A stretch of DNA of 32,000 nt from Geotalea uraniireducens Rf4 (GTDB taxonomy: Bacteria; Desulfobacterota; Desulfuromonadia; Geobacterales; Geobacteraceae). Below, piece after piece: positions 7,385-7,552 of the stretch (positions are counted from its first letter, which is position 1; the number at the start of each line of letters is the position of its first letter). Location of the stretch: assembly GCF_000016745.1 (NCBI RefSeq), contig NC_009483.1:1680001-1712000 (forward strand), in the 5' to 3' direction. The notes under the pieces were generated by a model. It made no database searches. It was not told the origin of the DNA and saw only the letters and a program-made list of their open reading frames with translations. The translations under genes were made by a program, and so were the position numbers.

Positions 7385-7552
7385 CAAAAACGGCAGTTAG
7401 CCACGAATGACACGAATAAACACGAATGTTTCTAACCCCTTGTTAAGTCTTGAGTAGTCACCGACCCGGTGAGGGTTTTTTGCATCACAAGAGCTTGTAT
7501 ATTTGTGCAAATTTGTGAAAATTCGTGGTTAAAATGTTTTTTATAGGTTCAT
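7385..7552 (-). repeat. ~165-bp repeat element, uninterrupted copy (inverted relative to the copy at 22561)
   Basis: It aligns base-for-base, with scattered substitutions and one 10-nt unit indel, to 22561-22699 + 24773-24793. It has 3x CACGAAT at 7402, 7411 and 7421, and 3x ATT(T/C)GTG at 7501, 7511 and 7521, in inverted orientation with ~10-bp phasing. The central hairpin is TCACCG acc CGGTGA. Confidence 0.85.

Follow-up and report, generated by a model that had tools for sequence, protein, structure and literature searches.

A short repeat is present twice, in opposite orientation, in 32,000 nucleotides of Geotalea uraniireducens Rf4 (NC_009483.1, positions 1,680,001 to 1,712,000 of the forward strand; hereafter the window, numbered from its first letter). 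Copy 1, which is complete, spans 7383–7547 on the + strand, while copy 2, on the − strand, is split by a group II intron into 22565–22699 and 24773–24793. The repeat probably belongs, as a non-autonomous member that lacks the gene, to a widespread family of small mobile elements bounded by inverted arrays of CACNAAT heptamers phased at ~10 bp. Both its membership in this family and its mobility are well supported. Full-length members hold a single gene for a GxxExxY protein (PF13366/TIGR04256), a PD-(D/E)XK nuclease of ~125 aa, and we infer that this nuclease binds the phased heptamers and mobilizes the element.

Structure of the Two Copies

Copy 1 is a non-coding unit of 165 bp located 117 bp upstream of the HlyD start codon. 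It begins with an outer left terminus (7383–7400, CCCAAAAACGGCAGTTAG), which is common to copy 2 and is the inverted counterpart of the outer right terminus (7529–7547, TTAAAATGTTTTTTATAGG). Between the termini lie the left arm of three phased heptamers (7401–7427, CCACGAAT-GA-CACGAAT-AAA-CACGAAT), a non-coding centre of 73 bp (7428–7500) at the place where full-length elements hold the GxxExxY gene, and the right arm, an inverted triplet (7501–7528, ATTTGTG-CAA-ATTTGTG-AAA-ATTCGTGG). The original prediction, made from the sequence of the window, had placed CACGAAT at 7402, 7411, and 7421, and ATTTGTG, ATTTGTG, and ATTCGTG at 7501, 7511, and 7521, and all six positions are correct. Eight of the nine occurrences of CACGAAT/ATTCGTG in the window fall in the two copies, as against 4.5, scattered, in shuffled sequence.

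The repeat had been assigned to 7385–7552, and here only the boundaries have to be moved. Since the inverted symmetry and the similarity between the copies reach ~18 bp beyond the arms (CCCAAAAACGGCAGTTAG vs. the reverse complement of TTAAAATGTTTTTTATAGG), the unit is 7383–7547, with imperfect terminal inverted repeats (TIRs) of ~45 bp that include the arms (CCCAAAAAC..TTAGCCACGAAT.. vs. CCTATAAAAAAC..TTAACCACGAAT..) and an arm separation of 73 bp. Immediately outside stand the two copies of a 5-bp direct repeat, TTCAT at 7378–7382 and TTCAT at 7548–7552, a possible target-site duplication. In its length below 600 bp, its lack of an open reading frame (ORF), and its long TIRs, copy 1 has the form of a MITE, or miniature inverted-repeat transposable element. 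The centre contains a hairpin, TCACCG-ACC-CGGTGA, followed by GGG and six T residues (7458–7481), which makes a weak terminator-like site. A hairpin stem retained in both copies had been described; it is present in copy 1, but copy 2 has a weaker closing pair and no T-run.

The main part of copy 2 (22565–22699) comprises the right terminus, a right arm of two heptamers (22584–22601), the centre, and most of the left arm (22676–22699). The remainder (24773–24793) holds the last 3 nt of the outermost heptamer and the outer left terminus (reverse complement of CCCAAAAACGGCAATTAGCCA), and is 95% complementary to 7383–7403. Copies 1 and 2 align at ~85–90% across arms and centre, and the alignment bears out the earlier reading that copy 2, whose arms hold three and two heptamers, is short of exactly one 10-nt unit. 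Its flanks read ATAAA/ATCAA, compared with TTCAT/TTCAT at copy 1. An empty site for copy 2 was sought by looking up one gene adjoining it, and none was found.

The split coordinates of copy 2 result from a group II intron (22700–24772, + strand), which is not part of the element and which accounts for the whole 2,073-bp gap, being inserted inside the outermost heptamer (ATTCG/TGG). Its reverse transcriptase-maturase ORF (22989–24572) has RVT_1 and GIIM domains without an endonuclease domain, and a match to Rfam RF00029 (53 bits) at 24622–24772 corresponds to intron domain V/VI. The intron is complete, beginning with GTACG and ending with CTAC. As its target is a repeated sequence, it may have many potential homing sites in the genome.

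Copy 1 as an Insertion

In three relatives (L128, L213, and L214; loci compared with the window carry L numbers), the orthologous intergenic region shares the cupredoxin gene, the terminator, and the HlyD leader with the window, and ~170 bp are missing exactly at the element. The empty site reads ...CAACTGTTCCT/GCTGCCGG... in L128, against ...CAACTGTTCAT[165 bp]TTCATGTAAGGTGCCGG... in the window, and L128 has TTCCT where the window has TTCAT. These empty sites amount to an insertion polymorphism and show copy 1 to be an insertion at this site. Because the HlyD-ABC operon and its leader are present in relatives without the element, a dedicated regulatory site for HlyD-ABC is not supported, and any effect of the hairpin or T-run on the downstream HlyD-ABC genes would be a by-product of the insertion. 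Short-read contigs from another sample (SRR29904084), which match this part of the window exactly, end within the left arm, as contigs do at a repeat, and this points to an element that is repetitive in the source organism.

The Arm Signature Across Genomes

The arm pattern CCACGAAT-N2-3-CACRAAT-N2-3-CACRAAT was scanned for in one genome per species, 596 Gb in total. It matches at least 120 genome stretches, where an estimated ~1 would be expected by chance in a collection of this size. The matches listed come from Bacteroidota, Verrucomicrobiota, Planctomycetota, Acidobacteriota, Chloroflexota, Proteobacteria (Nitrosomonas and gammaproteobacteria), and others, and most of them are convergent pairs 0–130 bp apart. 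The ~10-bp phasing of the heptamers, on which the original prediction had staked its case, is kept in hundreds of related loci, with a period of 10 in 226 of 232 cases, and nothing that was to count against that prediction was found.

Gene-less elements also occur elsewhere, as in two Flavobacterium species that carry elements with a conserved centre at non-orthologous sites. Orthologous pairs compared for selection on the arms were uninformative: in L016/L078 the left arm is intact and the right arm is decaying, and L029/L113 and L080/L112 are too diverged or are independent insertions. Arrays of other heptamers (CACAGAT, CACGGAT, GCAGATT, and others) adjoin or nest within the CACGAAT-type arrays. 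Elements of different heptamers are nested or abut at L081 3851–4034, L022 700–1900, L010 2780–2895, and L013 1449–1526, with examples such as CACGGAT arms within CACGAAT arms and TCCAGAA arms around GNAT and PF12843 genes beside TTAACAA arrays. Such nesting suggests a superfamily whose members insert into each other.

When the neighbouring genes at the matches listed were clustered, no recurrent family and no linked transposase or regulon emerged. This bears on the cooperative protein-binding array that the original prediction had offered as one of three options. It is a reasonable description of the arms, but they do not form an operator, given the unrelated neighbours in at least 120 loci and the HlyD-ABC genes that stand without the element in relatives. 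A conserved-regulon operator was likewise rejected, there being no recurrent neighbour family among the matches listed and no such site in the three close relatives.

One specific form of this idea takes the arrays as sites for a host nucleoid protein or global regulator (IHF/HU), serving as an operator or architectural site for HlyD-ABC. Phased repeats on one helix face suit cooperative binding, the HlyD start codon is only 117 bp away from copy 1, and the passages of Aklujkar et al. (2009; PMC2700814) on paired tandem repeats in G. metallireducens provide a precedent. Even so, this role is very unlikely. Close relatives keep the operon and leader without the element, neighbouring genes are unrelated among the loci listed, and copy 2 sits beside an RHS toxin gene. 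Furthermore, the heptamer differs by lineage whereas IHF and HU are conserved, and the arms travel with the GxxExxY gene.

The inverted arms could also act at the RNA level, pairing in a transcript as a long interrupted stem (a terminator, stabilizer, or RNase III site) that is tolerated in operons and rRNA, a role that would be compatible with mobility. In the + strand RNA the arms pair with each other, G-U pairs included, at a folding energy of −47.3 kcal/mol (z = −3.95), while the opposite strand gives z = −1.9. Copy 1 has its central hairpin with a T-run, and full-length elements often stand squeezed between genes that point the same way. There are also said to be GxxExxY genes within intervening sequences of 23S rRNA. 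An RNA-level function is nonetheless improbable: no Rfam family matches the element at the gathering and E-value thresholds, either in the window or among 20 related loci, and the weak Rfam matches in the window lie on the upstream terminator, off the element. The heptamers are conserved in sequence and show no covariation, changes at heptamer position 4 are uncompensated, the spacers of the window arms are not complementary, and the T-run of the hairpin is missing in copy 2. The structured small RNA that had been another option of the original prediction is not supported, given the lack of an Rfam family and the pattern of arm conservation.

GxxExxY Genes Between the Arms

Six GxxExxY genes (PF13366 PDDEXK_3/TIGR04256) are found among the at least 120 arm loci listed, and all six abut arrays. 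In L082, L047, and L112, the gene lies exactly between a left and a right arm, with the heptamer variant CGCAGAT in L112, and in L032, L071, and L076 it lies between two complete short elements. As an independent test, 80 metagenome loci (L130–L209) were selected solely by similarity to one GxxExxY protein clade. By eye, nearly all of the 80 show the layout (t)taaCCACGAAT-gaa-CACGAAT-gga-CACGAATG...ORF...stop-ATTCGTG-ttc-ATTCGTG-tcc-ATTCGTGGtta, so that a left arm of the copy 1 type stands upstream of the gene. By strict count, at least two ATTNGTG follow directly after the stop codon in 70 of 73 loci and at least two CACNAAT stand at the gene start in at least 62 of 77; the strict arm count is passed by just 9 of 763 control windows.

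The full-length element measures ~440 bp and reads AACCACGAAT-gaa-CACGAAT-gga-CACGAATG, one GxxExxY gene, then stop-ATTCGTG-ttc-ATTCGTG-tcc-ATTCGTGGTT. In most copies, the third heptamer contains the gene's start codon. A profile of the right arm was made from 50 distinct full-length elements, anchored on the outermost heptamer alone. It gives ATTnGTGTyy three times and ends in GTGGTT, with the terminal GTGG-TT invariant. In the two inner heptamers, which were used neither for selection nor for anchoring, ATT.GTGT is near-invariant, and position 4 and two spacer positions vary.

In distant clades of the protein, encoded on plasmids, the same layout is built from other heptamers (CACAGAG, CGCAGAG, CGCAGAT, CGCGAAG, ACAAATC, and CGCGGAT). 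Full arrays of CACAGAG, CGCAGAG, CGCGGAT, CGCGAAG, and ACAAATC were found on plasmids of Bacteroides, Bernardetia, Gemmatirosa, Sphingomonas, and Prevotella. A GxxExxY gene of Treponema has a single CACGGAT/ATCCGTG pair only.

Both window copies have the arms of this family, that is, inverted arms with 2–4 CACNAAT heptamers at 10 (9–11) bp, the outermost extended to CCACGAAT or ATTCGTGG. The family terminus AACC...GGTT appears in the window as AGCC on the left, and on the right as GGTT in copy 1 and GGCT in copy 2. The window copies also have ~18 extra bp of inverted terminus per side, which are absent from the full-length elements examined. A tblastn search of the 32-kb window found no GxxExxY gene; the window copies are thus MITE-like, gene-less derivatives and not full family members.

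All clades keep the GxxExxY motif and the catalytic D...(D/E)xK residues without change, the invariant Asp and Lys being D74 and K86 in the numbering of L082. An AlphaFold2 model of a GxxExxY protein has a pLDDT (predicted local distance difference test) score of 87, and Foldseek searches with it return generic PD-(D/E)XK neighbours (Cas4, lambda-exonuclease, tRNA-splicing endonuclease, and Hjc), a likeness at the level of the fold only. Sequence searches of the PDB with GxxExxY proteins matched no solved structure, and scans of viral contigs with two GxxExxY proteins found no relatives. The family is very large, a single GxxExxY query having matched more than 7,000 clusters at 90% identity. 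Literature searches on GxxExxY, PDDEXK_3, and PF13366 returned only a table in one classification paper, which lists the function of the family as "Unknown" and notes multiple horizontal transfers; searches on the heptamer as a word or substring returned nothing relevant.

Several loci show further features of these elements. In L154 (900–1400) and L156 (1350–1850), a 17-nt direct duplication (ATGAAATGGTTTCAGCA), which takes in the start of the downstream gene, stands on either side of a full-length element, and L183 has a degenerate version at apparently the same site; 17 nt is far longer than the 5-bp repeat of the window. In an Akkermansia metagenome-assembled genome (MAG; L040 3380–3900), tandem units of ~390 bp consist of a left arm, ~330 bp, and a right arm, with a 96-aa ORF in the ~330-bp interior that has no Pfam or NCBIfam match. 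In some clades, as at L219 (690–1170) and L047 (6250–6300), the start codon has been called in the first heptamer and the annotated N-terminus (MDTNxHE...) is the translated arm. The database consensus N-terminus "MDTN.HE" may therefore be partly an annotation artefact.

The company that the arms keep also bears on which enzyme moves them. The arms could be recognized by an enzyme that is not linked to them, whether an ordinary transposase or a recombinase of the host, in which case the GxxExxY gene would be their commonest passenger and the window copies would be ordinary MITEs of an insertion sequence yet to be named. The 5-bp flanking repeat is typical of DDE transposons, transposition by a nuclease alone has no known precedent, and other cargo genes occur between similar arms. 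This is still unlikely, as no transposase lies between or beside the arms in ~200 loci (~0.9 Mb), the heptamer changes along with the GxxExxY lineage, and the start codon of the gene lies within the third heptamer in most copies.

Proposed Mode of Movement

In the mechanism that we propose, the 73-bp centre would have taken the place of the gene of the full-length element, and the resulting 165-bp unit would have reached at least two intergenic sites as a whole. The phased heptamers are predicted binding sites on one helix face for three GxxExxY nuclease protomers per arm. The nuclease encoded by the element would pair both ends and then cut, and gene-less copies would depend for their movement on a GxxExxY protein supplied in trans from another part of the genome. 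Insertion would yield a short duplication, such as TTCAT at copy 1. A broader proposal, which we hold possible but somewhat short of probable, is that GxxExxY genes and phased heptamer arms constitute a previously unrecognized class of prokaryotic mobile element. Its sole protein would be a minimal PD-(D/E)XK nuclease that assembles on three plus three helically phased sites, its gene-less, MITE-like derivatives would extend across most bacterial phyla, and the "global regulator/IHF sites" of Geobacter would belong to the same superfamily.

The remaining option of the original prediction, a MITE with multiple transposase-binding sites, is upheld in most respects: there is insertion polymorphism against three relatives, the inverted termini are long, the element is non-coding and occurs more than once, and its arms are shared by a full-length relative that bears a gene. 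The reservation concerns the transposase, as the sole gene of that relative encodes a nuclease, whose transposition activity is putative, and no recognized transposase.

Several observations weigh against a nuclease-driven mobile element. With no GxxExxY gene in the window, the trans-acting partner is assumed, and the binding of the protein to the heptamers is likewise a prediction. To our knowledge, a PD-(D/E)XK nuclease alone is not known to transpose, lacking strand-transfer activity. In 128 elements taken together, direct repeats are in general no commoner at the flanks than in shuffled flanks; the 5-bp duplication comes from this window alone, and the L154/L156 type has one of 17 nt. Arrangements such as element-gene-element (L032, L071, L076, and L210) and arm-gene-arm-centre-arm (L219 and L146) are unlike simple cut-and-paste, and other cargo is found in similar arms, namely the GNAT and PF12843 genes of L022 and the 96-aa ORF of L040. 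In addition, many full-length copies share one site in related metagenome lineages (L130–L138), so that movement may be rare. An identical GxxExxY protein (P0193), followed across contexts, has only one site, which recurs in many samples.

If homing rather than transposition were at work, the gene-less palindromes would be primary and the GxxExxY genes would be free-standing parasites resembling homing endonucleases, which cut an intact arm-centre-arm target and are copied into its centre by repair; the window copies would then be unoccupied or decayed targets. PD-(D/E)XK homing endonucleases exist, I-Ssp6803I being one. The gene always lies exactly between the arms, like a homing endonuclease gene inside its own recognition site, and centre lengths vary continuously from 0 to 130 bp. 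Homing leaves unexplained, however, both the spread of gene-less units to new intergenic sites, copy 1 being an insertion, and the 73-bp centre shared by the two window copies, and the element-gene-element forms do not fit it. On this balance, we consider homing a rather poor prospect.

Related Repeats and Known Mobile Systems

The layout of the repeat is not wholly new, although it had been called undescribed. In the sections of Aklujkar et al. (2009; PMC2700814) that treat them, "putative global regulator binding sites" of classes 1–3, annotated as putative IHF sites, are catalogued in G. metallireducens. They consist of 3–5 tandem repeats of 7–9 nt, paired on opposite strands at a variable distance, the same architecture as in the window element, and number tens of intergenic copies absent from a sister species. 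The class 2 repeat given there, TCTCCGTS[Y], has the reverse complement CACGGAGA, which is the CACGGAG type of Bacteroides GxxExxY arms (L127). Unlike the CACGAAT of the window element, the repeats in these sections have a different heptamer and were read as regulator or IHF sites. The paired tandem-repeat architecture as described there was thus known earlier, but those sections state no link to GxxExxY genes or to mobility; literature searches found no paper that joins paired tandem-repeat sites to GxxExxY genes.

Among known mobile elements, the closest in form are the bacterial MITEs (Correia, Nezha, and Chunjie). The window element is like them in being 165 bp long, non-coding, intergenic, and AT-rich relative to its host, with long imperfect TIRs. 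It also shares with them its several copies, presence/absence polymorphism among close relatives, a short flanking repeat, and a longer gene-bearing relative with the same ends. It differs in that this relative encodes a ~125-aa PD-(D/E)XK nuclease and not a DDE, HUH, or serine transposase, in that its ends are three identical heptamers at 10-bp phasing, conserved across phyla, and in that the family has no consistent target-site duplication.

Of the known systems, two have been considered as direct identities, namely the attC-like sites of an integron-like cassette system and the published Chunjie MITE of G. uraniireducens. In favour of the former, L032 has a co-oriented array in which at least 10 elements separate small genes (toxin-antitoxin and GxxExxY), as in a cassette array, and copy 2 houses a group II intron, attC sites being the targets of some group IIC introns. 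The arms, however, have no RYYYAAC/GTTRRRY core beyond AAC/GTT and carry three identical boxes instead of R and L boxes, no integrase is nearby among the window ORFs scanned, the window copies stand alone, and arm-gene-arm units do not look like cassettes; the attC identity was rejected for the absent cores, identical boxes, solitary copies, and lack of an integrase. Chunjie was described from G. uraniireducens Rf4 itself, but its published descriptors (178–235 bp, 21-bp TIRs, 9-bp repeats, and −98 to −130 kcal/mol) do not match a 165-bp element with a 5-bp repeat and −47 kcal/mol, so by these descriptors that identity was also set aside. Either origin is highly improbable.

The stretch of L032 itself (1–3450, a Nitrosomonas MAG) has at least 10 co-oriented elements between small genes (GxxExxY, DUF4160/DUF2442-like, and toxin-antitoxin-like). 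Among them are successive tandem units of ~170 bp whose two arms have jointly changed from CAC to CGC (CGCGAAT/ATTAGCG). The layout is integron-cassette-like, with no integrase in view.

More distant likenesses concern the arrangement of the ends. Tn7 (TnsB sites), Mu (L1–L3/R1–R3), and the inverted repeat/direct repeat (IR/DR) ends of Sleeping Beauty also have several direct-repeat protein sites per end, inverted between the ends. Tn7 and Mu make a 5-bp duplication, and Tn7 also uses a PD-(D/E)XK nuclease, TnsA. Their sites are, however, ~20 bp long and bound by DDE proteins, whereas those of the window element are 7 bp at 10-bp spacing and have no DDE protein. Homing endonucleases such as I-Ssp6803I resemble the family in having a small PD-(D/E)XK gene between the halves of a palindrome and in being multicopy, horizontally spread, and selfish. 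Their targets are conserved host genes, while the "site" flanking GxxExxY genes is a dispersed repeat that also moves without the gene. Repetitive extragenic palindromes (REPs) and the mosaic elements built from them (BIMEs) are very abundant short intergenic palindromes mobilized in trans by a single domesticated gene, that of the REP-associated tyrosine transposase (RAYT). REPs are GC-rich hairpins of 20–40 nt with a GTAG motif and RAYTs are HUH Y1 enzymes, and the window element has neither feature.

With lineage-specific phased arrays around GxxExxY genes and gene-less arms that are dispersed and polymorphic, the GxxExxY family gains a concrete and testable role as a selfish nuclease with defined DNA sites. 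Repeat classes annotated in genome papers as regulator-binding sites can now be reinterpreted, and annotators gain a simple means of recognizing a repeat at which short-read assemblies break and which lies at operon junctions. If it is true that the nuclease alone moves the element, its chemistry of transposition or homing would be new, and its recognition module would be very small and programmable in appearance.

Other Features of the Window

Further repeats and genes in the window stand apart from the element. The S1 protein is 90% identical to its counterpart in Geotalea daltonii. Between the superoxide dismutase and DJ-1/PfpI genes (6150–6341), a head-to-tail array of (GGAACGA)~8 is followed by (AACCTCG)~17, at 95% identity; this heptanucleotide array has probably expanded in the window, since the counterpart spacer in L213 is only ~96 bp. 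At the start of the ORF at 15112–16092, three 20-bp tandem units (GGGCGCGGTTCTCGCGCCCT...) occupy 15120–15188. A tRNA-Leu(TAA) gene at 21179–21265 comes after an IHF/HU-like gene and is followed by a low-coding stretch and then by copy 2 with its intron. Copy 2 adjoins the gene for an RHS-repeat toxin of 1,638 aa whose tip is a phospholipase A2; this gene lies downstream (region 21300–31000). The C-terminal RHS core is duplicated, at 29752–29844 and 30592–30684, which is the layout of an orphan toxin module, and the stretch from tRNA-Leu to the RHS gene looks like a tRNA-linked island.

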